From Parcubacteria group bacterium (GTDB lineage: Bacteria > Patescibacteriota > Minisyncoccia > Phycocordibacterales > UBA2135): DNA of 64,000 nt. The DNA lies in NCBI GenBank assembly GCA_016176785.1, contig JACOWN010000007.1, forward strand, positions 6,970 to 70,969. Direction: 5' to 3'. Below are positions 2,640 to 57,078 of this stretch, in pieces. A program made the translations under genes and the position numbers. A model generated the notes under the pieces. The model searched no databases. It saw nothing but the letters and a program-made list of their open reading frames with translations, and was not told where the DNA came from. Position 1 is the first letter of the stretch. Every line of letters starts with the position of its first letter.

Positions 2640-3752
2640 ATGTCCGTTTTACTCTTTATCATCGTCCTTGTCGTCCTCATTCTCGTCCACGAGTTCGGGC
2701 ATTTTATCGTTGCAAAAAAAACGGGGATCCGCGTTGACGAATTCGGGCTCGGATTTCCGCCGAAGCTTTTCAGCGTTCGCCGGGGAGAAACGGAGTATTC
2801 CATGAACGCGCTGCCGTTCGGCGGCTTTGTGCGCATTTTCGGAGAAAATCCAGAGGATGTCGCCTTAGACCATCCAGACCGCGCGCGGAGTTTCGTTGCC
2901 CGGCCAAAACCGATACAGGCAGCCGTCATGGTCGCCGGAGTTACCGCTAACATTGCGCTCGCGTGGGTCCTGCTTTCTTTTGGGTTTATGGTAGGGCTCC
3001 CCATGCCGGTTGACGGTGCGCCGCAAGGCGTCGTCGTGGAGAACGCGCGCGTCGCGATCATAAGCACCGCGGACGGCTCGCCCGCCTCCGAGGCGGGGCT
3101 TCTGCCCGGCGACCGCGTACTTTCTTTGTCTGCGAAAGGGGACCGGCGGGACATCGCGTCGGTCTCCGACCTGCAAACGTTCATTGCGTTCCACGGCGGC
3201 TTGCCCGTGACGGTGCTTTACGAACGGCAAGGCGAGCGGCAGACGGCGGTCGCAACGCCTCGTTCGGGTTCGGGGATTCCGGAGCTGCCGTTTGCGCAAC
3301 CGGCGCTCGGAGTCACCGTCGGTCTTATCGGCACGGTGACGCTTCCACCGCATCGCGCGTTTTTTGAAGGAGCGCGCATGACCGCCGCACTCACCTCGTC
3401 CGTCGTTTCTTCATTCGGCATGCTTGCCCGCGATGCGTTCCGCGGCGCAGCCGACCTCGCGACGCTCACCGGTCCCGTCGGCATCGCGGGTATCATCGGC
3501 GACGCAGCGGATTTCGGAATTATCTATCTTCTCGGGCTGACCGCGTTCATTTCCATTAATCTCGCCGTCATAAACCTCCTGCCGCTTCCCGCTCTTGACG
3601 GCGGCCGACTCCTTTTTCTTTTGATAGAAGCGGTGAGGGGTGCGCCGCTCAATCCGCGCGCGGTTACCATTGCGCATGCCGTCGGGTTTGCGGCTCTCAT
3701 CATCCTCATGCTCGTCGTCACCTTTAACGACATCGTCCGCATCGTTTCCTGA
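2640..3752 (+). CDS. rseP: RIP metalloprotease RseP (M50 site-2 protease with PDZ)
   Basis: HEFGHFIVAK zinc-binding HExxH in the first TM segment, central PDZ-like segment, NLLPLPALDGG motif near the C-terminus. Confidence 0.85.
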   Translation: MSVLLFIIVLVVLILVHEFGHFIVAKKTGIRVDEFGLGFPPKLFSVRRGETEYSMNALPFGGFVRIFGENPEDVALDHPDRARSFVARPKPIQAAVMVAGVTANIALAWVLLSFGFMVGLPMPVDGAPQGVVVENARVAIISTADGSPASEAGLLPGDRVLSLSAKGDRRDIASVSDLQTFIAFHGGLPVTVLYERQGERQTAVATPRSGSGIPELPFAQPALGVTVGLIGTVTLPPHRAFFEGARMTAALTSSVVSSFGMLARDAFRGAADLATLTGPVGIAGIIGDAADFGIIYLLGLTAFISINLAVINLLPLPALDGGRLLFLLIEAVRGAPLNPRAVTIAHAVGFAALIILMLVVTFNDIVRIVS

Positions 3753-3802
3753 TCACCGCAAGATCGCCGCGGCCGTGCGACGCGCGCCTGTCAATTTCCA
3801 TG

Positions 3803-3836
3803 AAAAAATCCCGCGCTAGTGCGGGAGATTTTTGGT
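3803..3836. terminator. bidirectional intrinsic terminator between rseP and the convergent minus-strand ORF
   Basis: A-tract, then stem TCCCGC/GCGGGA with a 6-nt loop, then a T-tract; sits between convergent gene ends. Confidence 0.5.
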
Positions 3837-4172
3837 GTGATGACGCACCACGGAAATGATCATGTCTGCCCATCCGGTTGCGTTCCCGACGAGCCAGTCG
3901 GCGTATTGTTGCCGCTTTTCGTCGGTGTCAAGCGGCGGCGAGAATGGATTTTGAACGGTCGTGTGCGCAACGCCCGCGCGAAGCTCCTGCCGACACTCGG
4001 GGTCGGGTTCAAAAAACCACGGAAAGAACACCGCTTTGTACCCGCGCCGCCACGTTTCGCTTTTGTCGGGAAACGCCTTGGAAAGCGCAGCGTCTGCTTC
4101 CGTTTCTGAAAGACATACGCGCTTGCTGAAGCTTAACTTGTTAAACGGGCCGTGCGTATGGCTCATTGCCAT
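3816..4172 (-). CDS. hypothetical protein
   Basis: About 118 aa from the ATG at 4172 (GGAG 7 nt upstream); non-repetitive protein-like sequence; the only sizable ORF in a 480-bp gap; convergent terminator at its 3' end. Confidence 0.4.
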   Translation of the reverse strand: MAMSHTHGPFNKLSFSKRVCLSETEADAALSKAFPDKSETWRRGYKAVFFPWFFEPDPECRQELRAGVAHTTVQNPFSPPLDTDEKRQQYADWLVGNATGWADMIISVVRHHTKNLPH

Positions 4173-4212
4173 TTCTCCGCATCGTCTCTTGTTCTGTATA
4201 GCACGGCGAAGT

Positions 4213-4241
4213 TTGAATGAAAAGCGCTTTTGGGCTATCAT
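4213..4241 (+). promoter_or_regulatory. sigma70-like promoter of proS (TTGAAT-17-TATCAT), leaderless configuration
   Basis: -35 TTGAAT at 4213-4218, 17-nt spacer, -10 TATCAT at 4236-4241, ATG at 4248 (6 nt after the -10). Confidence 0.4.
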
Positions 4242-4247
4242 AGAGCA

Positions 4248-5492
4248 ATGCGATTTTCACATCTTTTTACCGCAACGCGGCGCGATGCGCCGAAAGATGA
4301 AGTTGCAAAAAACGCGCAGCTTCTTGTCCGCGCCGGATTCATCCATAAAGAAATGGCGGGTGTTTATTCGTATCTCCCGCTCGGCTTCCGCGTCCTTAAA
4401 AAAATAGAGAACATCATCCGCGAGGAAATGGACGCGATCGGCGGGCAAGAGGTGCTTTTGACGGCGCTTCAGGACCCCGACGTGTGGAAGAAGAGCGGCC
4501 GCTGGTCGGATGACGTGGTAGACAACTGGTTCAAGACGACGCTTGCGAACGGCGCGGAGGCGGGCATCGCGAATACGCACGAGGAGCCGCTCACCGCCCT
4601 CATGCGGGAACACGTCCGCTCCTACCGCGATCTGCCGCGGTACGTGTACCAGATCCAAGATAAGTTCCGGAACGAACTGCGCGCAAAATCAGGGCTCATG
4701 CGCGGGCGCGAGTTCATCATGAAAGATCTTTACTCGTTCACGAAAGACGAGAATGAATTGGAGCGTTTTCACGAGAAATGCGCGGAGGCGTACCTGCGCA
4801 TCTTCCGCCGCGTCGGATTGGGAGAACTGACATACCGCACCTTTGCATCCGGCGGCGCATTTTCAAAATACAGCGACGAGTTCCAAACGCTCTCGGAGGC
4901 GGGGGAGGACACGATCTACGTTGACAAAGAAAAAGGAATCGCGGTCAACAAAGAGGTATATACCGATGAGGCGCTTGCCGACCTCGGTCTCAAAAAAGAA
5001 AACCTCGTTGAAGCGAAAGCGATAGAAGTGGGGAACATCTTCAAACTCGGCACGCGTTTTTCGGAGGCGCTCGGACTCACGTATCGGGACGAGGACGGCG
5101 CGGAAAAGCCGGTCGTCATGGGTTCATACGGCATCGGACTCGGGCGGCTTATGGGCGCGGCGGTTGAGGTGTTCTCGGATGAAAAAGGAATCGTGTGGCC
5201 GGAAGAGATCGCGCCGTTCGCATACCACCTTATTGCGCTCGGCGCCGAGCGCACGGTCCGCGCGCGCGCGGACGAGATCTATGACATGTTCGCCGCCTCC
5301 GGCGCGGAAGCGCTCTATGACGACCGCGAAGAAAGCGCGGGGGTAAAGTTTGCGGATGCGGAGCTTATCGGCATTCCGACCGTCATCATCGTAAGCGAAA
5401 AAACGCTCTCCGCCGGCGAAGACCGCGTTGAAGTGCGTCGCCGCGCGACGGGCGCGTCCCGCATGGCGCGCATCGGTGACATCGTTACCTGA
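4248..5492 (+). CDS. proS: prolyl-tRNA synthetase (short form without the editing insertion)
   Basis: Class II aaRS motifs; N-terminus MRFSHLF..DAPKDEVAKNAQLLVRAGFI typical of ProRS; the ORF-track start at 4230 is TTG, the ATG at 4248 is preferred. Confidence 0.85.
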   Translation: MRFSHLFTATRRDAPKDEVAKNAQLLVRAGFIHKEMAGVYSYLPLGFRVLKKIENIIREEMDAIGGQEVLLTALQDPDVWKKSGRWSDDVVDNWFKTTLANGAEAGIANTHEEPLTALMREHVRSYRDLPRYVYQIQDKFRNELRAKSGLMRGREFIMKDLYSFTKDENELERFHEKCAEAYLRIFRRVGLGELTYRTFASGGAFSKYSDEFQTLSEAGEDTIYVDKEKGIAVNKEVYTDEALADLGLKKENLVEAKAIEVGNIFKLGTRFSEALGLTYRDEDGAEKPVVMGSYGIGLGRLMGAAVEVFSDEKGIVWPEEIAPFAYHLIALGAERTVRARADEIYDMFAASGAEALYDDREESAGVKFADAELIGIPTVIIVSEKTLSAGEDRVEVRRRATGASRMARIGDIVT

Positions 5493-12037: not shown

Positions 12038-12091
12038 GTTGTTTTTCTCGTCATCGGCATCGTTTTACGGCTCGTCAGAGCCGTTTTTTGT

Positions 12092-12176
12092 TGTGGATAA
12101 ACCGGTAAAAGGACCGTCCTTTTCGCAAAAAGGACGGTCCTTTGAGGGAGTTATCCACAGGCGGTTTGTGTGGATA
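12092..12176. repeat. bipartite repeat locus A: three TTATCCACA-type boxes flanking an inverted pair of AAAGGACSGTCCTTT palindromes
   Basis: TGTGGATAA at 12092, AAAAGGACCGTCCTTT at 12107, AAAAAGGACGGTCCTTT at 12127, TTATCCACA at 12151, TGTGGATAA at 12168; the same bipartite motif recurs at 38264, 48994 and 53858. Confidence 0.6.
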
Positions 12177-12184
12177 ACCGGTTT

Positions 12185-12240
12185 TGCTTGGTGGGTGAAA
12201 GTGGAGTACAATAATAGACAAGTGGTAAGAAGTGGAAAAA
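12185..12240 (+). promoter_or_regulatory. mraZ promoter (TTGCTT-17-TACAAT) with three AAGTGG direct repeats (candidate MraZ operator)
   Basis: -35 at 12185-12190, -10 at 12208-12213; AAGTGG at about 12198, 12219 and 12229 with 21- and 10-bp phasing immediately upstream of the mraZ ATG. Confidence 0.45.
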
Positions 12241-21639: not shown

Positions 21640-22375
21640 ATGGGAAAGCTGTGCACGGATCAGTTGATCGGGAAGTTGGTCGCCCTCTTGCGAGAGGCCG
21701 ACTCGGAGGAGTTCGATGACGCGGTGACGCAGGCCAAGGGTCAACTCACGGCAGAGTCCAAGCAGGCCAAGCGGAACGACCTCGAGAAGCTCTTCGACGC
21801 TCAGATCGCGACTCTCAAGGATCGCGGCGTCCCCGAGCAGATCGTGGAGATCCTCCAGAACCAGAAGGGTTCGGTGGTGAAGAAGGCGAGCGAGTTCGGT
21901 GGTGAAGAAGGCGAGCGAGATGGCGATCGGAGACGGCAACATTCCGTTTCTCCCCGTCATCCCCCGCTCCCCTCGGAGCCCCTACGACCTCATGGCCATG
22001 GTGCGAAACGGTTCGAAGGTGGGCTACGCCTACCTCAACCCGACGCAGATCTCCGATGTGGTGGACGCTCCCCAAGAGCCCTACTACATCTACGATGTCG
22101 AGGACGGCAACATCACCCGTGGCAAGTCGCCGGAAGACGCCCTAAAGATCTTCAAGCAGCAGAAGCGGTCTCCGCTCACTGCCGCCGAGGTCATGGCGCT
22201 CGCGACTCACACGGATGTGCTCTCGCGGCACTATGTGTGGGCTACCGGCTCCCGCTATGAGTTCGCCGCCCGGGTGCCGAATGTCTATCTGGGCGGCGGT
22301 CGGCCGAAGCTCGGCTGGGACTGGGTCGGCGACTCGCTTGGCCACTGGGGTTCCGCGTCTTGCGGTAGTCGCTAG
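21640..22375 (+). pseudogene. cassette paralog B, disrupted by a frameshift
   Basis: ORFs 21640-22260 and 21899-22375 are in different frames but together align with paralog A (..YIYDVEDG..GSRY..GRPKL..GSASCGSR); the frameshift coincides with the 25-bp tandem duplication. Confidence 0.55.
21871..21919 (+). repeat. 25-bp perfect tandem duplication (tcggtggtgaagaaggcgagcgag x2)
   Basis: Seen directly in the sequence; the length is not a multiple of 3, so it shifts the frame of paralog B. Confidence 0.7.
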
Positions 22376-25583: not shown

Positions 25584-25922
25584 ATGAAGTCTGACATACA
25601 CCCGACCTATTACCCGAACGCCACAGTAACCTGCGCGTGCGGCAATTCTTTTACTGTGGGTTCAACGATGGAAAAAATAGAAGTGGAAATTTGCTCCGCG
25701 TGCCATCCGTTCTATACGGGGCAGGGGAAGATTTTGGACACTGCGGGGCGCGTGGAGAAATTCAAGGCGCGCCGCGCGACCGCAGAATTGCGGAAGGGAG
25801 ACCTTGCAAAAAGCAGGGAAAAGAAGGAGGCAAAAAAGGCAAAAAAAACAGAGAGTAAAAAAACAAAAGCCCCCGCGCCCAAAAAACAAAAAACAAAAGC
25901 AAAAACAAAAACCGCGAAGTGA
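25584..25922 (+). CDS. rpmE: ribosomal protein L31 (zinc-binding form) with a lysine-rich tail
   Basis: [10 protein letters not shown]...CxCG...[10 protein letters not shown]. Confidence 0.9.
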
Positions 25923-25940
25923 CCGCTTCGCGGTTTTTGT
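25910..25940 (+). terminator. intrinsic terminator of rpmE
   Basis: 9-bp stem ACCGCGAAG/CTTCGCGGT enclosing the stop codon, followed by TTTTTG. Confidence 0.6.
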
Positions 25941-25943
25941 TGC

Positions 25944-25985
25944 CGCCGTCTATGCTTAAATTCTTAAGAATTTAAGCATAGACGG
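25944..25985. repeat. 42-bp perfect palindrome centred on CTTAAG
   Basis: gccgtctatgcttaaattctt | aagaatttaagcatagacggc, exact reverse complements. Confidence 0.7.
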
Positions 25986-26125
25986 CGAGACACGCGAACG
26001 GAACAGCCCGCTGAAACTGTGTCTTGACAGAGTCGTGTATGTCTGATATCGTATAATCCGGCACAGTTACCTCTACCTCCCCGCAATGTCGCGGGTAACC
26101 ATCAGAATAGGAAAGGAAAGAAGAC

Positions 26126-37197: not shown

Positions 37198-38265
37198 ATG
37201 CCAACACGCAAAGATTTCTACGAAATACTCGGGATCGCGCGTGACGCGACGAAAGACGGCGTTAAAAAAGCGTACCACCGTCTCGCGCGCAAATACCATC
37301 CCGACAATAAAGAAACGGGCGATGAGGCGCGTTTCAAAGAGATTAGCGAAGCGTATCATACGCTTTCTGACGATAAACGGCGCGCGGAGTATGACGCGTA
37401 CGGCAACGTTTTTGCCGGCGCGGAAGGATTTTCCGGATTCGGGCCGTTCGGTGGAGCGCAGGGCATGGAGTTTGACCTCGGCGATATTTTCGGCGAGTTT
37501 TTCGGCGGCTTGGGGGGAGGAGAACGCTCCCGCCGCATGCGGCGCGGGAGAGACATAACGATTGACGCCGAGGTTTCTTTCGCCGAAGCCGCGTTTGGCA
37601 CAGAGCGTTCATTTTTGCTCGGCAAAACAGCGCAGTGCGAGGCGTGCCGCGGCACGGGCGCGGAACCGAATACGGAATTGGCCGTGTGCGCGGCGTGCAA
37701 CGGCCAGGGCCGCGTGCACGAGACGCGCTCGTCGTTCATCGGCACCTTTTCAAGCATCCGCGAGTGCGACGCGTGCCGCGGTGAGGGCCGCGTGCCGAAA
37801 GAGACGTGCCATGTATGCCGCGGCATGGGAGTGGTTAAAAAACAAGAAGAGGTAACCATTACCATCCCCGCCGGTATCGAAGACGGCGGCGTCATCAAGA
37901 TCGGAGAAATGGGAGAAGCGGTCCAGCGCGGCGCATCGGGCGATCTCTATGTCAAAGTGCATGTTGCGCGGCATCCGATATTCCGCCGCGAAGGGCACAA
38001 TCTCATCATGACGCTTGACATTAAACTTTCCGATGCGCTCCTCGGCGCGACGTATCAGATCGGCACGCTTGATGGCGCGACGCTCAAATTGAAGATACCC
38101 GCCGGCGTTACGTTCGGAGAGATATTGCGCGTGAAGGGGAAGGGCGTGCCCATTGAGCGGGGCAAGCGCGGCGACCTCCTGGTTAAACTGAACGTAAATC
38201 TGCCGACCGCGCTTTCGCGCGCCGCGAAGGAACTTTTTGAGAAGCTCCGCAGTGAAGGTATTTAA
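37198..38265 (+). CDS. dnaJ: molecular chaperone DnaJ
   Basis: J domain (DFYEILGI....KKAYHRLARKYHPD), G/F region, four CxxCxGxG zinc repeats. Confidence 0.9.
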   Translation: MPTRKDFYEILGIARDATKDGVKKAYHRLARKYHPDNKETGDEARFKEISEAYHTLSDDKRRAEYDAYGNVFAGAEGFSGFGPFGGAQGMEFDLGDIFGEFFGGLGGGERSRRMRRGRDITIDAEVSFAEAAFGTERSFLLGKTAQCEACRGTGAEPNTELAVCAACNGQGRVHETRSSFIGTFSSIRECDACRGEGRVPKETCHVCRGMGVVKKQEEVTITIPAGIEDGGVIKIGEMGEAVQRGASGDLYVKVHVARHPIFRREGHNLIMTLDIKLSDALLGATYQIGTLDGATLKLKIPAGVTFGEILRVKGKGVPIERGKRGDLLVKLNVNLPTALSRAAKELFEKLRSEGI

Positions 38266-38327
38266 GGACGGTCCTTTTTGAGTTTATCCCCAGAAAACTG
38301 GGGATAAACTCAAAAAGGACCGTCCTT
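38264..38327. repeat. bipartite repeat locus B: 64-bp perfect palindrome (30-bp arms, 4-nt centre)
   Basis: AAGGACGGTCCTTTTTGAGTTTATCCCCAG aaaa CTGGGGATAAACTCAAAAAGGACCGTCCTT; the left arm starts inside the dnaJ stop codon. Confidence 0.7.
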
Positions 38328-38343: not shown

Positions 38344-38368
38344 CCCCGCAGTTGCGGGTTTTTGTTTT
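38344..38368 (+). terminator. intrinsic terminator after dnaJ
   Basis: CCCCGC-agtt-GCGGG followed by TTTTTGTTTT. Confidence 0.6.
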
Positions 38369-46968: not shown

Positions 46969-47008
46969 AATCCCTGTCAAGGCGCCGCCTTGACAGGGAT
47001 TTTGTATT
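46969..47008 (+). terminator. intrinsic terminator (14-bp stem) after the MBL hydrolase gene
   Basis: AATCCCTGTCAAGG-cgccg-CCTTGACAGGGATT followed by TTGTATT. Confidence 0.55.
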
Positions 47009-48950: not shown

Positions 48951-48987
48951 ACCCGCTATGCGCAATGCATGGCGGGTATTTTTTTGC
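48951..48987 (+). terminator. intrinsic terminator after the large hypothetical gene
   Basis: CCCGC...GCGGG stem followed by TATTTTTTT. Confidence 0.5.
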
Positions 48988-48993
48988 CCCACC

Positions 48994-49026
48994 TGTGGAT
49001 AACCAAGCCCAAGGACGGTCCTTTTT
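48994..49026. repeat. bipartite repeat locus C (TGTGGATAA + AAGGACGGTCCTTTTT) upstream of mraY
   Basis: TGTGGATAA at 48994-49002, AAGGACGGTCCTTTTT at 49011-49026. Confidence 0.6.
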
Positions 49027-49080
49027 GGGCCTTATTTTGCGCACTTTGAGCGGCAAAAAAAACGTGTTATATTCAAACCA

Positions 49081-50139
49081 ATGGAAGTCCTCTCCGTTGT
49101 CAAAGTATTTGTGCCAGCGACAGCCGCTTTTTTTGTTGGCATTGTTCTCACGCCGTTTCTCACGCATTTTCTTTACAAACATAAATTGTGGCGCAAGGAA
49201 GCGAAACAGACGACGATCAGTGGCGCGGAAGCCGCGGTAACCCGTTCTCTCGGCAGTCAGCAAAATGAAACAAAAGTTCCTCGCATGGGCGGTATCGTCA
49301 TTTGGGCATCGGTGCTGCTGACGACGCTCGGATTCTGGCTTTTCAAAGATCTCTTCCCTTCCACGCTCACGGAGAAATTGAACTTTTTAAGCAGGAACCA
49401 GACATGGCTCCCTCTTTTTACGCTTGGCGCAGCGTCGCTTGCCGGATTGCTTGATGACGCGCTCGTCGTCTCCGGAAGGGGGCGCTACGCGAGCGGCGGA
49501 TTGCCGCTTCATGTTCGCATCCTTATCGTGCTCGCGATCGGCGCTCTCGGCGGGTGGTGGTTTTTTACCAAATTGGGAGTGAACGCGGTCGCGGTCCCGT
49601 TCGCGGGAGAGATTTTCCTCGGTCTTCTGTTCGTGCCGTTTTTCATGCTCGTGATGCTCGCGCTTTTTTCCGGAAGCGTCATTGACGGCATTGACGGGCT
49701 TGCCGGCGGCATCATGGCGATTATTTTCGCCGCGTACAGCATCATCGCTTTTTTCCAGGATCAGATTGACATCGCCGCTTTTTCCGCCGTCGTTACGGGA
49801 GGACTTCTCGCGTTTTTGTGGTTTAATATCCCCCCCGCGCGGTTTTACATGTCGGAAACCGGCATGCTCGGGCTTACGACCTCGCTCACCGTCATCGCAT
49901 TTTTAACCGACGCGGTCTTTGTGTTGCCGCTCATTGCGTTTCCGCTTGTGGCGGCTTCCGGCTCCGTTATCGTTCAGCTTCTTTCCAAAAAATTCTTCGG
50001 CGTAAAGGTTTTCCGCGCGGCTCCCTTGCACCATCACTTTGAAGCGATCGGCTGGCCTTCATACAAAGTAACCATGCGGTTCTGGGTTCTGGGTGCTATT
50101 TTCGCGCTTCTGGGCGTCGTCGTGGCGCTTGTCGGATAA
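49081..50139 (+). CDS. mraY: phospho-N-acetylmuramoyl-pentapeptide transferase
   Basis: 10-TM GT4/MraY topology; conserved DD, ..VIDGIDGLAGG.. motifs. Confidence 0.9.
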   Translation: MEVLSVVKVFVPATAAFFVGIVLTPFLTHFLYKHKLWRKEAKQTTISGAEAAVTRSLGSQQNETKVPRMGGIVIWASVLLTTLGFWLFKDLFPSTLTEKLNFLSRNQTWLPLFTLGAASLAGLLDDALVVSGRGRYASGGLPLHVRILIVLAIGALGGWWFFTKLGVNAVAVPFAGEIFLGLLFVPFFMLVMLALFSGSVIDGIDGLAGGIMAIIFAAYSIIAFFQDQIDIAAFSAVVTGGLLAFLWFNIPPARFYMSETGMLGLTTSLTVIAFLTDAVFVLPLIAFPLVAASGSVIVQLLSKKFFGVKVFRAAPLHHHFEAIGWPSYKVTMRFWVLGAIFALLGVVVALVG

Positions 50140-50145
50140 TGTTTT

Positions 50146-51237
50146 ATGCAACGGCATTTTGACACATGGTTCCTCGTCTTGGTCATCGCGCTTGTCGTCG
50201 GTGGCTTTTTTGTTTTTCTTTCCGCGTCGCTCGGGCTTCTTGCGCGCAGCGACGCCGTTTTTTCCGGCATCATCATAAATCAGATCGTGAGCCTCACTCT
50301 GGGCGTCGGCGTCCTTGTTCTCATGGCGCGCATCCCGTATCGTTTTTTGAAACCTGCCGCGTTTTATATTTTTCTTCTGGCGATCGGTGCGACGGCGCTT
50401 GTTTTCATCCCTTCATTAGGATTGGCGTACGGCGGCGCGCAACGCTGGCTTGCGGTCGGCCCGTTCACGTTTCAGCCGGCTGAGTTCTTGAAACTGGGAT
50501 TTGTGTTGTACTTTGCCGCGTGGCTTTCCGCAATGCGTATGCGCGTTCATTCGCTCTGGTACGGCATTGTACCGTTCGCTGCGATCATTGGCGTTGTCGG
50601 GGTTCTTCTTTTGGCGCAGCCGGACACCAGCACCTTCGTCATCGTCATTGGAACAGGCCTCGGCATGTTCCTTGCCAGCGGCGCGCGCTGGCGGCACATC
50701 CTCGCTCTCTCCGGAGCGGCTTTCGCGGGACTCGGCGGCGTCGCGTTCTGGAAACCGTATATCCAACAGCGCATCATTACTTTTTTTGACCCCTCGTTTG
50801 ACCCCCTTGGCGCGGGTTATCAGATCCAGCAGTCGCTCATCGCCATCGGTTCGGGCCAGCTGTGGGGCAGGGGGTTTGGCCAAAGCGTCCAGAAATTCGG
50901 TTTTCTTCCCGAACCGGTCGGCGACTCCATTTTCGCCGTCTTTGCCGAGGAATTCGGTTTTTTCGGAAGCGCAGCGCTCGTCACGCTCTTCGTGCTCTTT
51001 GCGTTTCGCGGTTTTTCCATAGCGGCGCGCGCCCCCGATTATTTTGCTCGACTGACGGTCGTCGGACTTGTTATACTCATTGTAGGGCAAGCGTTCCTGA
51101 ATATCGGCGCCATGCTCGCCGTTTTTCCGCTGACCGGTTTGCCTCTGCCGTTCGTTTCTCACGGCGGCTCCGCGCTCCTTTTGACGCTTGCTGAAGCGGG
51201 GATCATACTGAACATTTCACGGTACGTTAAAACGTAG
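50146..51237 (+). CDS. ftsW: SEDS-family peptidoglycan glycosyltransferase FtsW/RodA
   Basis: 363 aa polytopic; ..GGAQRWL..GPF.FQP.EF.K.. SEDS signature; lies between mraY and murG. Confidence 0.85.
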   Translation: MQRHFDTWFLVLVIALVVGGFFVFLSASLGLLARSDAVFSGIIINQIVSLTLGVGVLVLMARIPYRFLKPAAFYIFLLAIGATALVFIPSLGLAYGGAQRWLAVGPFTFQPAEFLKLGFVLYFAAWLSAMRMRVHSLWYGIVPFAAIIGVVGVLLLAQPDTSTFVIVIGTGLGMFLASGARWRHILALSGAAFAGLGGVAFWKPYIQQRIITFFDPSFDPLGAGYQIQQSLIAIGSGQLWGRGFGQSVQKFGFLPEPVGDSIFAVFAEEFGFFGSAALVTLFVLFAFRGFSIAARAPDYFARLTVVGLVILIVGQAFLNIGAMLAVFPLTGLPLPFVSHGGSALLLTLAEAGIILNISRYVKT

Positions 51238-51317
51238 TGGTCCTTTGGCGGTGCCGCGGGCAAACGGCGATACGCGCGGCGCGCATCATTCCCTATCAAA
51301 ATTTACAGCAAAAATCC

Positions 51318-52445
51318 ATGAAAATTTTATTGACTGGCGGCGGTTCCGCCGGACATTTCTACCCGCTGATCGCCATCGCCGATGCGGTGCGGCGTATTGC
51401 CGAAAAAGAAAAACTTGTTAAACCGGAGTTGTATTATCTTTCAACGTCGCCTTACGACGAGCGCGTTTTGTTTGACAACGACATCGTTTTTAAGCGTGTC
51501 TTTGCCGGTAAAATGCGCCGCTATTTTTCCCTTTTAAATCTCATTGATATTTTTCCGATGACGCTCGGCCTCGTGAAGGCCTTGTGGAGCGTTTATTTCG
51601 TGTATCCTGACGTGGTGGTGAGCAAGGGCGGCTATGCGAGCATTCCCGCCGTGTTTGCGGCGCGTCTTCTCAACATTCCGGTCATCATCCACGAGTCGGA
51701 TGCCGTTCCCGGCCGCGCAAACCGTTGGGCGGCGCGCTTCGCGGTCCGCATCGCGCTTTCGTGGCCTGAAGCCCAAGCGTTTTTTCCTGCGGAAAAAACG
51801 GCGGTCACCGGTCAGCCGGTACGCGAAGAAATCAAAATTCCTTCGGAACGCGGCGCGCGGGAATATCTGCATCTTGAAGAGGAAGCGCCGGTCGTGCTGG
51901 TGCTCGGCGGCTCCCAAGGAGCGGAGCGCATCAATCAGACGATCCTTGACAGCGTGGCGGATCTCGTGGAGCGTTTCCAAATAATCCATCAAGTTGGCGT
52001 GAAAAACCTGCCCGCCCTTGAACAACTGCGCAAAGCGATCCTCGGCGGGAACGTGCACAAAGAACGGTATCATCCTTTCGGATATTTGAATGCGCTCGCT
52101 TTGCGGATGTCGGCGGGCGCCGCTGACCTCGTCGTGTCCCGCGCCGGTTCCACGATCTTTGAGATCGCCGCATGGGGGCGGCCGAGCATCATCATCCCTC
52201 TTACGGATTCAAACGGCGATCACCAGCGGCGCAACGCATTCAATTACGCGCGCTCCGGCGCCTGCATCGTCATTGAGGAAAAAAACCTGACCCCGCACGT
52301 GCTTTTGGCGGAGATACAACGGCTCATGGACCACCGCGAAGAACGCGAACGCATGGCAGAAGCGGCAAAAAGTTTTTTTGTTCCCGGTGCGGCGGAAAAA
52401 ATAGCGCAGGAGGCGATCACTATAGCGCTCAAGCACGAACGATAA
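51318..52445 (+). CDS. murG: undecaprenyldiphospho-muramoylpentapeptide beta-N-acetylglucosaminyltransferase
   Basis: MKILLTGGGSAGHFYP N-terminal G-loop, GT28 two-domain layout; the ATG at 51318 is preferred. Confidence 0.85.
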   Translation: MKILLTGGGSAGHFYPLIAIADAVRRIAEKEKLVKPELYYLSTSPYDERVLFDNDIVFKRVFAGKMRRYFSLLNLIDIFPMTLGLVKALWSVYFVYPDVVVSKGGYASIPAVFAARLLNIPVIIHESDAVPGRANRWAARFAVRIALSWPEAQAFFPAEKTAVTGQPVREEIKIPSERGAREYLHLEEEAPVVLVLGGSQGAERINQTILDSVADLVERFQIIHQVGVKNLPALEQLRKAILGGNVHKERYHPFGYLNALALRMSAGAADLVVSRAGSTIFEIAAWGRPSIIIPLTDSNGDHQRRNAFNYARSGACIVIEEKNLTPHVLLAEIQRLMDHREERERMAEAAKSFFVPGAAEKIAQEAITIALKHER

Positions 52446-52481
52446 TATGCGAAGCCGCCGATCGCTCTTGGTTCTTGACCC

Positions 52482-53846
52482 ATGATTTCTGACTCCAAAA
52501 AAATCGTAACCCGTTTCGCTCCTTCTCCGACCGGCCCTTTTCATGTGGGAGCGGCGCGCACGGCGCTTTTTAATTTTTTGTTCACGCGGCATCACGGCGG
52601 CGTTTTCATCCTTCGCATTGAAGACACCGACAGTGCGCGTTCAAAAAAAGAATACGAAGAAGACATACTGCGCGGTCTTTCGTGGCTTGGCATCGCATAC
52701 GACGAGCTGCATCGGCAATCGGAACGAACCGCGGAATATCGCGGATCGATAGAGCGTCTGCTTCGCGACGGGACGGCGTATGTTTCCGCGGAGGAACGGG
52801 ACGGCGCGACAAGCGATGTCATCCGGTTCAGGAACCCCAACCAGCCGGTCACCTTTAACGATGCCGTGCGCGGCGAAATTACCTTTGATACGACCGAGCT
52901 CAAGGACTTTGTGATCGCCCGCTCCGTTGAGGAACCTCTCTACAACCTCGCAGTCGTCATTGATGACGGCGCAATGCGGGTAACCCACGTCATTCGCGGG
53001 GAAGACCATATCTCCAATACGCCGCGTCAAATTTTATTGCAGCGGGCGCTTGGACTGCCGCAGCCAATCTACGTCCACATTCCGCTCGTGCTTGCTCCCG
53101 ACCGCAGCAAACTCTCAAAACGGCACGGGGCAACGTCGGTATCCGAGTATCGCGATGCGGGATATCTGCCCGAAGCATTGGTCAACTTTCTTGCGCTTCT
53201 CGGCTGGTCTCCGCAGGAAGGGGCGGGGGACGAAGCCGCGGAAATCATGTCGCTCGGGGAACTCATTGCGCACTTTGATATTGACAAAATACAGAAAAGT
53301 GGTGCAATTTTTAATCTTGAAAAACTGCAATGGATGAATCGCCAGCACATTAGACGGCTGCCGCAGGAAAAACTTGAGCAGTATGTCGCGTCGTTTATGC
53401 CGCCTGACGTTGCGTCGTTGCCGCAATACGATCCGCCGCGCCTTGCGCGCGCCGCTTCGCTCATTGCCGAACGGCTCAAAACATTCGGCGACATCCGCAC
53501 GATGGCCGATGCGGGGGAACTCACGTTCTTTTTCGCGGCGCCGCCGTACCCCGAGCCGCACAAGCTTGCGTGGCGTACGGCTTCGCGCGAAGAGACGGTA
53601 CGCCACCTTGAGGAAGCGGCGGCGCTCCTTAAAAATGTTGCCGATCGCGATTTCATTGCGCGAACGATCACCGCCGTTCTTATGCCGTACGCCGAAGAAC
53701 ACGGCCGCGGCAACGTCCTGTGGCCTGTGCGGTACGCGCTTTCCGGAAAGGATCGGTCGCCGGACCCGTTTACTCTCGCCGCGGCTCTCGGCAAGGAGGA
53801 AACGCTCGCGCGGCTTTCTCTAGCCCGCGAGGCGCTCCAGAAGTAA
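52482..53846 (+). CDS. gltX: glutamyl-tRNA synthetase
   Basis: HIGH-like (PSPTGPFHVGAAR) and KLSKR (KMSKS-type) motifs. Confidence 0.9.
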   Translation: MISDSKKIVTRFAPSPTGPFHVGAARTALFNFLFTRHHGGVFILRIEDTDSARSKKEYEEDILRGLSWLGIAYDELHRQSERTAEYRGSIERLLRDGTAYVSAEERDGATSDVIRFRNPNQPVTFNDAVRGEITFDTTELKDFVIARSVEEPLYNLAVVIDDGAMRVTHVIRGEDHISNTPRQILLQRALGLPQPIYVHIPLVLAPDRSKLSKRHGATSVSEYRDAGYLPEALVNFLALLGWSPQEGAGDEAAEIMSLGELIAHFDIDKIQKSGAIFNLEKLQWMNRQHIRRLPQEKLEQYVASFMPPDVASLPQYDPPRLARAASLIAERLKTFGDIRTMADAGELTFFFAAPPYPEPHKLAWRTASREETVRHLEEAAALLKNVADRDFIARTITAVLMPYAEEHGRGNVLWPVRYALSGKDRSPDPFTLAAALGKEETLARLSLAREALQK

Positions 53847-53849
53847 TGT

Positions 53850-55196
53850 ATGTTTTCTGTGGATAACCTGTGGAAAAACCCGAAAAGGACCGTCCTTTTT
53901 GCCGGGGTTGCCGCGCTCGCGTTTTTGGGATACTTGGGATATGCGCCAGGAAATGCGCCGGCGGTCTTTTCTGCGGGGCTTATTGATGAGTTGCGTTCAA
54001 AGATACAGGAACGGAACAGCGAAATTGAGAAATTGGAGCAGGAAATCAAACGCTACGAAACGGAAATCACCACCATCAACAAAGCAACGCGGACGCTAAC
54101 GTCAACGGTTGCCGAAATAACGACAACGGAACGGAAACTTCGCACGGACATTACGCTTACGGAGCGAAAAATCAACACCGCCGCGCTTACGATACAAGCG
54201 CTCTCCGATGAGATCGCCGACAAAGAAGCGCGCATCAAAACCAACACCGCCGCGATCGGCGAGATCGTGCGGCGGATGCATGAACTGGAGTCGCGCTCGC
54301 TCATAGAAATATTTCTTTCCCGCGACACGTTTTCAAGTTTCTGGGACATTGTGGAAAATCTCGGGCGTCTTGAAAAAGGGGTTGCGGCAAACGTTGCCGA
54401 GCTTGAGTTTCTGAAGGAAGGATTTCTTACGGCGCGTTCCGAACGCGAGGCGGAAAAAACGCGGCAGACAAAACTCCGCAACCAACTCGCGGACCAAAAG
54501 GAACTTGTGGCGGCGAGCCGCGCACAGCAGGAAAAGCTCTTGCGCGAAACCAAAAACAAAGAAACGCTTTACCAAAATCTTCTTGAGGAACGCCTCGCGC
54601 GCAAAGAAGCGCTTGAGTCCGAGATCGCGGCGTTTGAAGACCAGCTGCGCGTTGAAATTGACCCGTCCAGTTTGCCGCCGACGGGGATGGGGGGCGTGCT
54701 TTCATGGCCGCTCGCAAGCGTTACCGTCACGCAGTATTTCGGCAACACGCCGTTCGCGAGCAAAAATCCACAGATCTATAACGGCGGCGGGCACAACGGC
54801 ATAGACCTGCGCGCTTCCGTAGGAACGCCCGTTTTGGCGGCGGCAAACGGCATCGTGGTGGACACGGGCGACACCGACACTGGCTGTTACGGCGCTTCTT
54901 ACGGCAAATGGGTACTGGTGAAGCACTACAACAACCTCGCGACCTTGTATGCGCACCTCTCGCTTATTCGCGTCGCGGCGGGGGAAGAAGTCAGGACCGG
55001 CGACTTGGTCGGATACAGCGGCAACACCGGATATTCAACGGGGCCGCACCTTCACTTTTCCGTGTATGCCGCTTCGGCGGTCCGCGTTACGGACGCATAC
55101 AAAAGCAAAGTATGCAAAACGAACCTCAAACTCCCGCTCTCGCCGCGAAACGGATACCTCAATCCGCTGTCGTATCTGCCGGCACTTGATAATTAG
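53850..55196 (+). CDS. M23-family peptidase with N-terminal TM anchor and long coiled coil (EnvC/LytM-like)
   Basis: C-terminal LytM domain (GxHNGIDL..., ..YAHLS..., GNTGYSTGPHLHF); about 250-aa coiled coil. Confidence 0.8.
   Translation: MFSVDNLWKNPKRTVLFAGVAALAFLGYLGYAPGNAPAVFSAGLIDELRSKIQERNSEIEKLEQEIKRYETEITTINKATRTLTSTVAEITTTERKLRTDITLTERKINTAALTIQALSDEIADKEARIKTNTAAIGEIVRRMHELESRSLIEIFLSRDTFSSFWDIVENLGRLEKGVAANVAELEFLKEGFLTARSEREAEKTRQTKLRNQLADQKELVAASRAQQEKLLRETKNKETLYQNLLEERLARKEALESEIAAFEDQLRVEIDPSSLPPTGMGGVLSWPLASVTVTQYFGNTPFASKNPQIYNGGGHNGIDLRASVGTPVLAAANGIVVDTGDTDTGCYGASYGKWVLVKHYNNLATLYAHLSLIRVAAGEEVRTGDLVGYSGNTGYSTGPHLHFSVYAASAVRVTDAYKSKVCKTNLKLPLSPRNGYLNPLSYLPALDN
53858..53900. 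repeat. bipartite repeat locus D (TGTGGATAA, TGTGGAAAA, AAAAGGACCGTCCTTTTT) overlapping the 5' end of the M23 peptidase CDS
   Basis: Encodes ..VDNLWKNPKRTVLF.. in frame if the ATG at 53850 is the true start. Confidence 0.6.
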
Positions 55197-55221
55197 TCGG
55201 GATTTGTCAATAATTAAAATA

Positions 55222-55536
55222 ATGCGCACGCTCCATTACCAAAAACAATCCGGTCTGGTAAAACTTATCCTTCTCGTCATTTTTGTTATTTTGGTTCTTT
55301 CCTATTTCAGCATTGACGTTCGGGGGATAGTAGAGTCGGAACAATCGCAGAAGAATTTTACCTATGTCTGGGGATGGGTTGTGTTTGTGTGGGACAGATA
55401 TCTCGGCGAACCGGTGCGGTATGTATGGAACAACATCGTGGTGAATCTATTGTGGGAAAGTTTTGTGAGCAACCTTGAACGCATCAAAAGGGGAGCGCCG
55501 AACGATTTTGAGCTCATGGCGCCGCAGGCGCCGTGA
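55222..55536 (+). CDS. hypothetical small membrane protein
   Basis: 104 aa; one TM segment plus a Trp-rich domain; hairpin terminator at 55538-55575. Confidence 0.4.
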   Translation: MRTLHYQKQSGLVKLILLVIFVILVLSYFSIDVRGIVESEQSQKNFTYVWGWVVFVWDRYLGEPVRYVWNNIVVNLLWESFVSNLERIKRGAPNDFELMAPQAP

Positions 55537-55643
55537 GAACCGCGCCCTCGGGGGAGAGGGCGCGGTTTCCTTCTCCACTTTGTATAGTGCAGTCAAGATA
55601 TATTGTGCGACATTATAAGGATGCCGCGAAGCGCAGTTTCTCC

Positions 55644-55901
55644 CTACTCCCCTCTGCCCAAGAAGTGAACGATGCGCCGCAGGTACGGCGCGTATTTTGG
55701 GTACCGGTCTGTGCATTTCTCAATCCCCGTTCGCACCCATCGGTACTCAAACGATAAGAGGTAAAAACCGATCACAATGAACAAAAATCCCTGCAAAAAC
55801 GGCAAAACGATGCCGGTGATGCCGACAATAATCAAAAAACCTCCCGCGATCGTAATGAGCCCCCTTCGTATACTCCCCCTCATACTGTTTGCATAAATCA
55901 C
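55644..55901 (-). CDS. hypothetical small membrane protein (two TM segments)
   Basis: 85 aa; GLITIAGGFLIIVGITGIVLPFLQGFLFIVIGFYLL. Confidence 0.4.
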   Translation of the reverse strand: MIYANSMRGSIRRGLITIAGGFLIIVGITGIVLPFLQGFLFIVIGFYLLSFEYRWVRTGIEKCTDRYPKYAPYLRRIVHFLGRGE

Positions 55902-55906
55902 GCGTC

Positions 55907-56299
55907 CTATTTCCCGTTAAGCCCCGGACAGTTGCTTGCCGGTTCGTAGCCGGCGGCGCGCGCTTCTTCTTCCGAGGCGAACCATAGTTTATTTGCTTCG
56001 CTTATTTGTGACGCCCCCGGGCACCACGGAAAGTGATACTTGCTCCCCTTCGCCGACGCGATGAATTGGCCCGCCGCCGCGGTTGGAAGCGCGCGTTCTG
56101 TCGGCGCAGTGCGTTCCCCTCCCTCTGCGGCTGCCCCGACAATGCGTATCGGCTCTTTCGCTTCAAATATTTTTGACAGGCGACCGAGGCCGAATCCCCC
56201 GAAGCCGACGAGGATAATGAGCGCGACAATGAACAAATCCTCTCGCCCGCTGAGCTTTTTAAGCGCACCCTTGCATTTTTCAGAAAAAACTTGTAACAT
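55907..56299 (-). CDS. hypothetical membrane-anchored protein with a C-terminal Cys/His motif (Ada-like metal-binding domain?)
   Basis: TM segment, then ..KYHFPWCPGASQISEANKLWFASEEEARAAGYEPASNCPG reminiscent of the YHxPxC...F.S.EEA.AAGxxPC pattern; start at 56299 preferred. Confidence 0.4.
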   Translation of the reverse strand: MLQVFSEKCKGALKKLSGREDLFIVALIILVGFGGFGLGRLSKIFEAKEPIRIVGAAAEGGERTAPTERALPTAAAGQFIASAKGSKYHFPWCPGASQISEANKLWFASEEEARAAGYEPASNCPGLNGK

Positions 56300-56330
56300 G
56301 CTTACACGCTTACATTTATAAATTTTCGTT

Positions 56331-56618
56331 ATGGCACACAAAAAAGCCGGAGGAACAGTCAAAAACCTGCGCGATTCAAACCCGAAATATCTCGGCACGA
56401 AAAAGTACGACGGCGAGACGGTAAAAAGGGGCTTTATTCTCGTGCGTCAGCGCGGCACCAAGATCCAGGCGGGCAGAAATGTTCGCCGCGGCAAGGATTA
56501 TACCCTCTTTGCGGCGATTGACGGCACGGTGCGTTTCAGGACGATCCGGAAAAAAGCATACACGGGGCACGTGCGTGCCCGCAAAGAAATTTCCGTGATG
56601 CCTGCGGGCACGAAGTGA
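56331..56618 (+). CDS. rpmA: ribosomal protein L27
   Basis: [19 protein letters not shown]...[27 protein letters not shown]. Confidence 0.9.
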
Positions 56619-56631
56619 GTGAACGAACCGG

Positions 56632-57078
56632 TCACTCGCTTTTTTTGATGCGCAGCATGAAGCGCGCCGTCCGTTCCCCGCGACGCACGAAAATCTCATA
56701 CTCCCCTATTTCTTTGAGAGGAGACGGCAGGTCTATGTCGCCCGCGTTGAGCTCCATTCCTTTTTCTTGTTTCACCGCCGCCGCGATCTCCTCGGCGTCA
56801 ACTCCGGCAAAAAGATGCCCGCGTTCATTTGCTTTCGCCGCGAGCGTTACCACTCCCCCGTCAAGCGAAACGAGCGCCGCTTCAAACGCCTCTTCCGTTT
56901 TTGCGTGCCCTTGCGCGGCCGCTTTTTTCAAATGCTCAACATTTTTTATTGCAGCCGGTGTTGCATACGCCGCTTTTTTTTGCGGCACAAGAACGTTCCG
57001 CGCATAACCGTCGGCGACCCAAACGACGTCGTGTTTACGGCCGATTTTCGGGACATCGGTCAGAAGAATGAGCTTCAT
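56632..57078 (-). CDS. rplI: ribosomal protein L9
   Basis: MKLILL.DV...G..HDVV.VADGYARN.L.P...A.......I; two-domain L9. Confidence 0.85.
   Translation of the reverse strand: MKLILLTDVPKIGRKHDVVWVADGYARNVLVPQKKAAYATPAAIKNVEHLKKAAAQGHAKTEEAFEAALVSLDGGVVTLAAKANERGHLFAGVDAEEIAAAVKQEKGMELNAGDIDLPSPLKEIGEYEIFVRRGERTARFMLRIKKSE

Follow-up and report, generated by a model that had tools for sequence, protein, structure and literature searches.

Repetitive extragenic palindromic (REP) sequences and their REP-associated tyrosine transposases (RAYTs) are regarded as mainly a feature of Proteobacteria, Cyanobacteria and Bacteroidetes, and the earlier work on them reportedly includes that of Nunvar in 2010, of Bertels and Rainey in 2011 and of Ton-Hoang in 2012. 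REPs, bacterial interspersed mosaic elements (BIMEs) and REPINs occur with a RAYT (TnpA_REP) in an arrangement known as the REPtron, that is, a RAYT gene at a fixed locus with flanking REPs (Quentin 2018, PMC6006769; 10.1101/2021.07.10.451892), and there is a structure of the E. coli enzyme (PDB 4ER8). We have analysed a 64,000-nt stretch of the genome of a Parcubacteria group bacterium (the window), in which a short bipartite repeat, made of a DnaA-box-like 9-mer (TGTGGATAA) and a palindrome with the core GGACSGTCC, recurs at four loci: A (12092-12177) before mraZ, B (38264-38327) overlapping the stop codon of dnaJ and preceding trpS, C (48994-49030) upstream of mraY, and D (53858-53899) directly 3' of gltX and overlapping the start of an open reading frame (ORF) for an M23 peptidase. 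These four sites are probably copies of a REP/RAYT-type hairpin repeat with a DnaA-box module, present in Paceibacterota.

The closest known system is REP/REPIN-RAYT, and within it the TnpA_Y1 subclass 2.4 (Bertels group 4). As there, the units are short palindromes, mostly extragenic and often in inverted pairs; in related genomes an HUH/Y1 gene is bracketed by its own units at a fixed chromosomal locus, and the best structural match of its product is a RAYT bound to a REP. There are also differences: GT[AG]G is missing from the hairpin foot and the conserved part is instead the apex, AGG-N5-CCT; a DnaA-box-like motif of 9-10 nt lies 2-13 nt outside the stem; the proteins, at ca. 230 aa, are longer and score below the NCBIfam RAYT cutoff; and the hosts are ultra-small Paceibacterota genomes. 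With subclass 2.4 the system shares an HUH motif of the NH[IFV]H type, some units resembling a 'double foot' (as in L011, where one hairpin stands between two boxes; L numbers are our handles for the other contigs) and a REP inserted into the transposase gene without breaking its frame, near codon 59 in the present cases (L002, L003, L007, L114 and L116). Such in-frame insertions have been reported as unique to this subclass (PMC6006769). However, the insertion here precedes the HUH motif instead of falling between HUH and Y, and the Y motif reads Y[IV]HLNP; the likeness is one of features.

The searchable RAYT/REPIN and Patescibacteria literature yielded no description of REP/RAYT in Paceibacterota, and queries with the core sequence, or combining RAYT/REPIN with Patescibacteria or the candidate phyla radiation, returned nothing relevant. 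The system described here would extend the host range of REP/RAYT to a large Paceibacterota clade, with genomes of ca. 1 Mb that are otherwise poor in repeats. The RAYT clade of these organisms comprises at least 2,400 protein clusters, annotated merely as 'transposase' or 'hypothetical', and the apex-conserved hairpin provides an easy search handle for such repeats.

The repeat units and their distribution

The window contains six AAGGACSGTCCTT hairpins and seven TGTGGATAA-type boxes, all within loci A-D and well above chance (Table 1). The palindrome AAAGGACSGTCCTTT, with up to two mismatches, is found six times where 0.13 copies would be expected (starts at 12108, 12129, 38263, 38314, 49010 and 53884), and every one of the six exact GGACSGTCC cores falls inside the four loci. 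For TGTGGATAA with up to one mismatch there are 15 matches against 5.6 expected, a figure that none of 100 shuffles attained; five copies are exact (12092, 12169, 48994 and 53858 on the plus strand, 12151 on the minus strand). All six hairpins are extragenic or at the extreme edge of a gene, and in all six units the box is oriented toward the hairpin, with 13-14 nt between box end and hairpin centre. A first-pass annotation of this DNA had reported the motif pair at these four places and named the neighbouring genes, and both statements hold, the second by Pfam annotation of the flanking genes. Its bipartite anatomy is present as well, but the real unit is more regular, with the fixed orientation and spacing just given. 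Its three perfect boxes at locus A are there, the third ending at 12177 and not at 12176; in its description of the motifs the sites stand, and what had to be corrected were the boxes of locus B, which are TGGGGATAA with one mismatch (38284, minus; 38299, plus), and the second box of locus D, a degenerate TGTGGAAAA at 53869.

Loci A and B are inverted doublets, while C and D are single units. In locus A the palindromes lie inside and the 32-nt arms (12092-12123 and 12128-12159) are 84% complementary; in locus B the boxes lie inside and the arms of a perfect 30-nt inverted repeat are 100% complementary. As single-stranded DNA (ssDNA) the two doublets fold at -25.8 kcal/mol (z -7.5) and -37.2 kcal/mol (z -15.3), respectively. 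Paired inverted units, a trait of REPINs and BIMEs, are also found among the relatives (L002, L007, L008, L013 and L116).

The palindrome is a stem-loop, the stem being kept by compensatory change. Its 1-nt centre had been taken at first to exclude a hairpin, which was an error: on folding, the element leaves a loop of 3 or 5 nt (3 nt in single units), the outer arms covary, and homologous hairpins have the same AGG-N5-CCT apex around unrelated loop sequences. A motif scan of one genome per species, with a search pattern that required the box, retrieved 14 loci, all from Patescibacteria/Paceibacterota-type metagenome-assembled genomes with 31-53% GC, in which the core is constant and the flanking arms are genome-specific yet complementary (for example, GTTGCCAAGGACCGTCCTTGGCAAC and AAAATAAAGGACCGTCCTTTATTTT). 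Outside AAGG-ACSGT-CCTT, the arms of 43 distinct hairpin copies (20 Patescibacteria contigs) reach up to 25 bp and vary from genome to genome with their complementarity kept. Pairing was found in 87% of cells against 72% in 500 shuffles, double-sided changes numbered 85 against 33 (none of the shuffles reached 85), and slid controls gave 36-53% pairing. The apparent invariance of GGACSGTCC throughout the phylum was an artefact of the search pattern, as an ACSGT loop is present at no more than 3 of the 80 loci found through the RAYT protein (see below); GGACSGTCC is one hairpin subtype.

The units are lineage-specific insertions, because relatives with the same gene order have neither box nor hairpin at mraY and gltX/M23. 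We compared orthologous junctions in relatives with conserved gene order: upstream of mraY in L111, and at the gltX/M23 junction in L110 and L111, both box and hairpin are absent, and upstream of mraZ in six relatives there are no hairpins. The M23 homologues of L110 and L111 begin directly at the hydrophobic (membrane or signal) segment, without the locus D unit. The nearest RsmH outside the source organism is only 57% identical. That boxes already in place had served as targets for bare hairpins was rejected for loci C and D, where the relatives have no box. In the window the M23 peptidase takes its start codon and first ca. 17 codons from the locus D unit (53850-53900, MFSVDNLWKNPKRTVLF), and the alternative in-frame starts would truncate the hydrophobic segment. 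For annotation it is relevant that REP units can create or replace gene starts, as in this peptidase, and coincide with the ends of short-read contigs.

The first-pass annotation had preferred a bipartite operator, with a dimeric regulator on GGACSGTCC and DnaA on the box co-regulating envelope and division operons. Three of the four sites do precede mraZ, mraY and the M23 peptidase gene, the box and palindrome keep their spacing of 13-14 nt, one box is conserved at the mraZ promoter, and for B. subtilis it has been proposed that DnaA controls the mra operon (10.1101/2022.02.09.479790). The comparison in relatives, which that annotation had itself suggested, nevertheless makes such an envelope regulon very improbable, since at orthologous promoters (L110, L111) the mraY and gltX/M23 sites are missing, no palindrome precedes mraZ, and only the hairpin-less mraZ box is conserved. 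Moreover, units elsewhere adjoin rpsS, pyrF, TPR, beta-helix and transposase genes, they occur in either orientation, follow stop codons or lie within coding sequence, and their genome-specific arms covary as a stem. The fallback offered at the time, a small REP- or MITE-like family (MITE, miniature inverted-repeat transposable element), is supported by the varied neighbours, the absence at orthologous junctions and the hairpins that flank RAYT-like genes.

A RAYT-like Y1 gene in related genomes

At 5 of the 14 motif-retrieved loci the hairpins bracket a gene of 220-245 aa, and hairpin-flanked Y1 genes were found in L002, L003, L007, L012, L013, L114 and L116; there was no hairpin-bracketed gene of this type in 178 kb of control Paceibacterota DNA (the window included). 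The product is an HUH/Y1 protein of ca. 230 aa that matches Pfam Y1_Tnp (PF01797) with 31-41 bits, the gathering cutoff being 23, and whose best NCBIfam family is NF047646, REP-associated tyrosine transposase (37-51 bits). The motifs N-H-F-H (HUH) and Y-x-H-L-N-P are invariant among these proteins. An AlphaFold2 model (pLDDT 82.6, pTM 0.83) has as its top Foldseek match in the PDB the E. coli RAYT bound to a REP hairpin (4er8_A, E 6e-6), followed by the TnpA proteins of IS608 and ISDra2; a sequence-profile search of the PDB with the RAYT alignment returned nothing at E<=0.01, and the relation came from the fold search.

The association of gene and hairpin also appears when the protein alone is used for retrieval. 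A metagenome search of this kind produced at least 546 relatives, and 80 RAYT loci were kept, 75 of them with a perfect hairpin (at least 6 bp, 5-nt loop) on one side or more and 55 with one on both sides. These hairpins mostly have a GG..CC closure (AGG-N5-CCT), a few being terminator-like or unrelated, and the loop sequence varies from locus to locus. The RAYT gene sits at a fixed locus and is vertically inherited: the order metK-maf-RAYT is kept in L114 and L116/L117, maf-RAYT adjacency is seen in L002 as well, and the proteins are 80-88% identical. Altogether maf and RAYT are adjacent on four contigs from at least three species (49-57% GC), and most RAYT protein clusters occur on 1-3 contigs.

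It could be argued that the hairpins are the ends or remnants of an autonomous insertion sequence (IS) of the IS200/IS605 type, or of its MITEs, selfish and recently active rather than long-lived REPs of a domesticated RAYT gene in single copy. The protein does belong to Pfam Y1_Tnp and also matches the TnpA folds of IS608 and ISDra2, the hairpins flank the gene, and the public annotation reads 'transposase'. We consider this improbable, since the neighbours are the same across species (maf in L002, L114 and L116/L117, metK in L114 and L116/L117) at the identities given above, and each protein cluster was seen on few contigs. Besides, most flanking hairpins are in inverted orientation and many form doublets, instead of two ends in the same orientation, the best fold and NCBIfam matches are RAYTs and not IS200 proteins, and hairpins are found far from any transposase gene (in the window, L001/L010 and L008).

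Some units lie within genes. An in-frame hairpin copy is present inside RAYT-like genes at the same codon position, ca. codon 55-60, where it is read as KGPSF, KGPSL or QGRSL (L002 ca. 3195, L003 1825, L007 5550, L015 ca. 3173, L114 10148-10168, L116 10169-10189); the switch between C and G at the hairpin centre changes Pro to Arg, so that conservation concerns the DNA palindrome and not the peptide. An example of intragenic insertion is a REP doublet of L116 (4135-4190, the same as L117 186-240) within a called beta-lactamase-family gene (3407-4417). Exact TTATCCACA is also found inside the RAYT coding sequence of L012 (7345-7353) and L018 (3304-3312), at the codons L-S-T of the conserved K-L-x-T-G-Y-S-M-Y-F-N; with 2 cases in ca. 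85 genes this is probably a coincidence.

The DnaA-box-like motif and the proposed mechanism

When hairpin-adjacent boxes are defined as those ending 9-30 nt 5' of the loop centre and pointing at the loop, 22 exact ones were counted against 0.04 expected, ca. 19 of which come from the 14 box-requiring motif loci or from the window itself. In the unselected, RAYT-retrieved loci there are ca. 7 exact boxes in ca. 146 flanks, still far above chance, and the whole 458 kb of sequence contains 50 exact boxes against 3.5 expected. The classical DnaA box consensus is TTWTNCACA (PMC6006769), and the six one-mismatch variants on the hairpin side, all of them either TGTGGAAAA (= TTTTCCACA) or TGTGCATAA (= TTATGCACA), change only its W and N positions. 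The mraZ box of L096, TTATCCACT, is a further exception to variation within the consensus, besides that of locus B discussed below. The box is independent of the hairpin type, a separable conserved motif, as it also stands beside hairpins of other loop and stem (L017, L023, L039, L075, where this occurs twice, L093 and L026). In L026 (300-420 and 1060-1340) there are five units of a variant architecture, with the hairpin GCAAGGTCCAACCTTGC directly abutting a TGTGGATAA box that follows it 3' without a spacer; they include a 40-nt tandem repeat.

A reading of the box by the RAYT through a DnaA-like domain of its own, as in subclass 2.1.2, was rejected: hhalign gave such a domain a probability below 0.3%, and in Pfam at E<=1 all 36 of 36 members have only Y1_Tnp. 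A host factor is therefore the likelier reader. The idea of the box as an operator of the RAYT promoter is weakened by the fact that boxes are commoner 3' than 5' of the gene. In the sequences gathered, i.e., the window and the contigs of relatives, there is no dnaA gene or oriC. Judging from sequence, the most likely identity of the box is that of a host DnaA site carried along by the unit, and binding of DnaA to TGTGGATAAC at these sites is predicted on that ground. Of the link to DnaA drawn in the first-pass annotation, the parts that stand are that the 9-mer behaves like a DnaA box and that the one at 12169-12177 is conserved at mraZ, while binding itself stays a prediction.

Another possibility is that the hairpins are structural signals of the host, namely terminators, mRNA stabilisers or nucleoid sites, with the box as an extended 5' guide or 'foot' read by the RAYT and not by DnaA. 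The A- and T-runs that flank hairpins in the source genome, one copy that scores as terminator-like, the units placed at gene ends beside terminators, and a GTGG within the box that fits the GT[AG]G foot of canonical REPs (PMC6006769) are all compatible with it. However, the units take either orientation with respect to transcription, the stems of other genomes are free of T-runs, the box is conserved at mraZ promoters with neither a hairpin nor a RAYT nearby, it lies 2-13 nt from the stem foot and not at it, and the variants tolerated in it fit the DnaA consensus. This makes such signals quite unlikely.

The unit consists of a variable stem, AAGG, the loop ACSGT, CCTT and the complementary stem, with the 9-mer on one side; if the four sites are REP/RAYT-type repeats, as we favour, the single units and REPIN-like doublets would be non-autonomous DNA inserted between genes in the source lineage. 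From the paradigms of E. coli RAYT/REP and IS608, a RAYT-like HUH/Y1 enzyme would recognise the folded ssDNA, cut it and rejoin it, and units and doublets would spread in trans, probably at replication forks; the relatives have one gene for it in a constant position, with these hairpins on either side (a REPtron). This mobilisation in trans through ssDNA we infer by analogy, and any effects on neighbouring promoters are predicted. At the box, DnaA may aid the extrusion of the hairpin, time RAYT activity to replication, be titrated, or influence a nearby promoter.

A bolder proposal, which at present we regard as rather unlikely, is that the ultra-small Patescibacteria have a REP/RAYT clade in which the repeat carries a working DnaA box, making the replication initiator a component of the REP/RAYT machinery. 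At 13-14 nt from the loop, bound DnaA could assist in melting or extruding the hairpin, or could tie RAYT activity to replication; alternatively, the repeats could scatter DnaA-titrating or regulatory sites (datA-like or promoter-proximal) over a genome poor in regulators. The doublet at locus A would then be a targeted insertion or a selected reinforcement of DnaA control over the division operon. If functional, the module would tie replication initiation in a concrete way to a domesticated ssDNA transposase system, and until now the idea of a link between Y1 proteins and replication has rested on DnaA-like domains in other Y1 proteins. In TnpA_Y1 subclass 2.1.2, also a transposon-derived system apparently tied to the code of DnaA and DnaA-box recognition, the protein has a C-terminal domain like Bac_DnaA_C and the flanking repeats are unlike DnaA boxes (PMC6006769); here, conversely, it is the DNA element that carries the box and the protein has no DnaA-like domain. 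There are precedents for mobile or repeated elements whose end or linker includes a binding site for a host DNA-binding protein, in the way of the candidate site described here. The outside end of IS50/Tn5 contains a DnaA box, and the BIME linker an IHF site; Tn5 differs in having a transposase of the DDE class, and in our case the function of the box is predicted from sequence.

Several observations weigh against the REP/RAYT reading. Only six hairpins are visible in 64 kb, and the window has no RAYT homologue, which leaves the link to the source genome to pass through relatives. The proteins do not reach the equivalog cutoff of NF047646 (80 bits). The canonical 5' GT[AG]G foot is absent from the hairpin base, and the stem has no conserved tetranucleotide directly next to it. 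Among the copies of the window, box and hairpin are separated by spacers that keep their length but vary in sequence, which fits selection on two modules, or old copies, better than recent copy-and-paste. Most GGACSGTCC hairpins of other genomes have no box, and the boxes of locus B, TTATCCCCA in DnaA orientation, break the DnaA consensus. Finally, cleavage by the RAYT, mobility and DnaA binding are predictions and not direct observations.

The mraZ promoter and further features of the window

The mraZ promoter has a conserved upstream element in the box at 12169-12177, which differs in kind from the mobile units. A hairpin-less box is found upstream of mraZ in all of seven Paceibacterota genomes (the six relatives being L095, L096, L097, L099, L102 and L103), exact in six and with one mismatch in L096, and in reversed orientation in L097. 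It is 72-271 nt from the ATG and, in 6 of the 7 genomes, ends 5-16 nt 5' of a -35-like hexamer; in L099 the promoter hexamers are not clearly readable. In three relatives it is the sole exact box in ca. 12.9 kb. The box is followed by two pairs of GTGGN repeats with a 10-nt period that bracket the -10 element, a layout conserved in the seven genomes (repeats at 12190-12237 in the window, 9510-9561 in L095, 9490-9540 in L097 and 5368-5420 in L103). The MraZ-binding repeat of B. subtilis is GTGG[A/T]G and, as already mentioned, DnaA control of its mra operon has been proposed (10.1101/2022.02.09.479790), and the GTGGN repeats look like an autoregulatory operator of MraZ. The likeness to known mra/dcw promoters, with repeats over the mraZ promoter and a DnaA-type box just upstream, is limited to the 12169-12177 box and excludes the bipartite repeat. 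The layout of box plus repeats at Paceibacterota mraZ is a new observation, and offers a testable form of division regulation where almost none is known.

In locus A the two-box doublet is 9 nt from this resident box. A mobile doublet would have landed beside a regulatory box that was already there, and it is possible that it was attracted to it.

Table 1. Coordinates of the repeat units at loci A-D and of features next to them (positions in the window)
Feature	Position	Strand	Remarks
Terminator-like hairpin of the upstream gene (context)	12067-12084	+	Intrinsic-terminator-like; just before the locus A doublet
Locus A doublet, REPIN-like	12092-12159	.	Box, hairpin, 4-nt gap, inverted hairpin, inverted box
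Locus A left box	12092-12100	+	TGTGGATAA; box end 14 nt from hairpin centre
Locus A hairpin, REP-type	12107-12123	.	AAAAGG-ACCGT-CCTTTT
Locus A inverted hairpin copy, REP-type	12129-12143	.	Centre G
Locus A box of the right unit	12151-12159	-	DnaA-box-like 9-mer
Locus A hairpin-less box	12169-12177	+	Outside the mobile doublet; upstream element of the mraZ promoter
Putative mraZ promoter (context)	12184-12237	+	TTGCTT-17-TACAAT interleaved with four GTGGN repeats, 10-nt period; read from sequence
Locus B doublet, boxes inside	38264-38327	.	Hairpin, box (-), AAAA, box (+), hairpin; starts within the dnaJ stop codon
Terminator-like hairpin after locus B	38345-38358
Terminator-like hairpin preceding the locus C box	48951-48977
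Locus C box, single unit	48994-49002	+
Locus C hairpin	49007-49030	.	Core 49010-49024; stem extended, GCCCAAGG...CCTT..GGGC
Promoter-like element between locus C and mraY	49046-49073		TTGAGC-16-TATATT
Locus D boxes	53858-53877	+	TGTGGATAA, then TGTGGAAAA (= TTTTCCACA)
Locus D hairpin	53883-53899	.	Within the first 17 codons of the M23 peptidase ORF (ATG 53850)

A search of the whole window with Rfam at gathering thresholds gave zero matches, and viral contigs scanned for the 17-mer gave two, which is the chance level. Other assemblies of the same organism (L104-L109) are identical to the window wherever they overlap it. Four of them, independent Logan short-read assemblies (L104-L107), have 3' ends that break exactly at the centre of hairpin D (53891), and the 5' end of L108 starts inside unit C (ca. 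49005). We rejected these contig ends as proof of a high copy number, the shared repeat being shorter than the usual assembly k-mers; a repeat of 17-19 nt cannot by itself break a k=31 assembly graph. The breaks may stem from heterogeneity of the population or recombination at the loop, or else sequencing and assembly errors induced by the hairpin.

Downstream (3') of an RNase J-like gene there is a hairpin with a 14-bp stem, AATCCCTGTCAAGG-CGCCG-CCTTGACAGGGATT, and a T-run (46969-47001); it is terminator-like, yet its apex, AGG-N5-CCT, is the one common in the REP family at large (cf. L030 and L044). A perfect, spacer-less palindrome of 44 bp (CGCCGTCTATGCTTAAATTCTT / AAGAATTTAAGCATAGACGGCG, 25944-25987) lies directly 3' of a terminator-like hairpin (25904-25941) and ca. 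40 nt 5' of a promoter resembling TTGACA-N17-TATAAT, and may be an operator. The ORF at 21640-22260 includes an exact 25-nt tandem duplication (21869-21918). Finally, the cumulative GC skew has its maximum at ca. 50-55 kb and the genes change from mostly plus to mostly minus after ca. 55.4 kb; the region of ca. 50000-57000 may correspond to the replication terminus.

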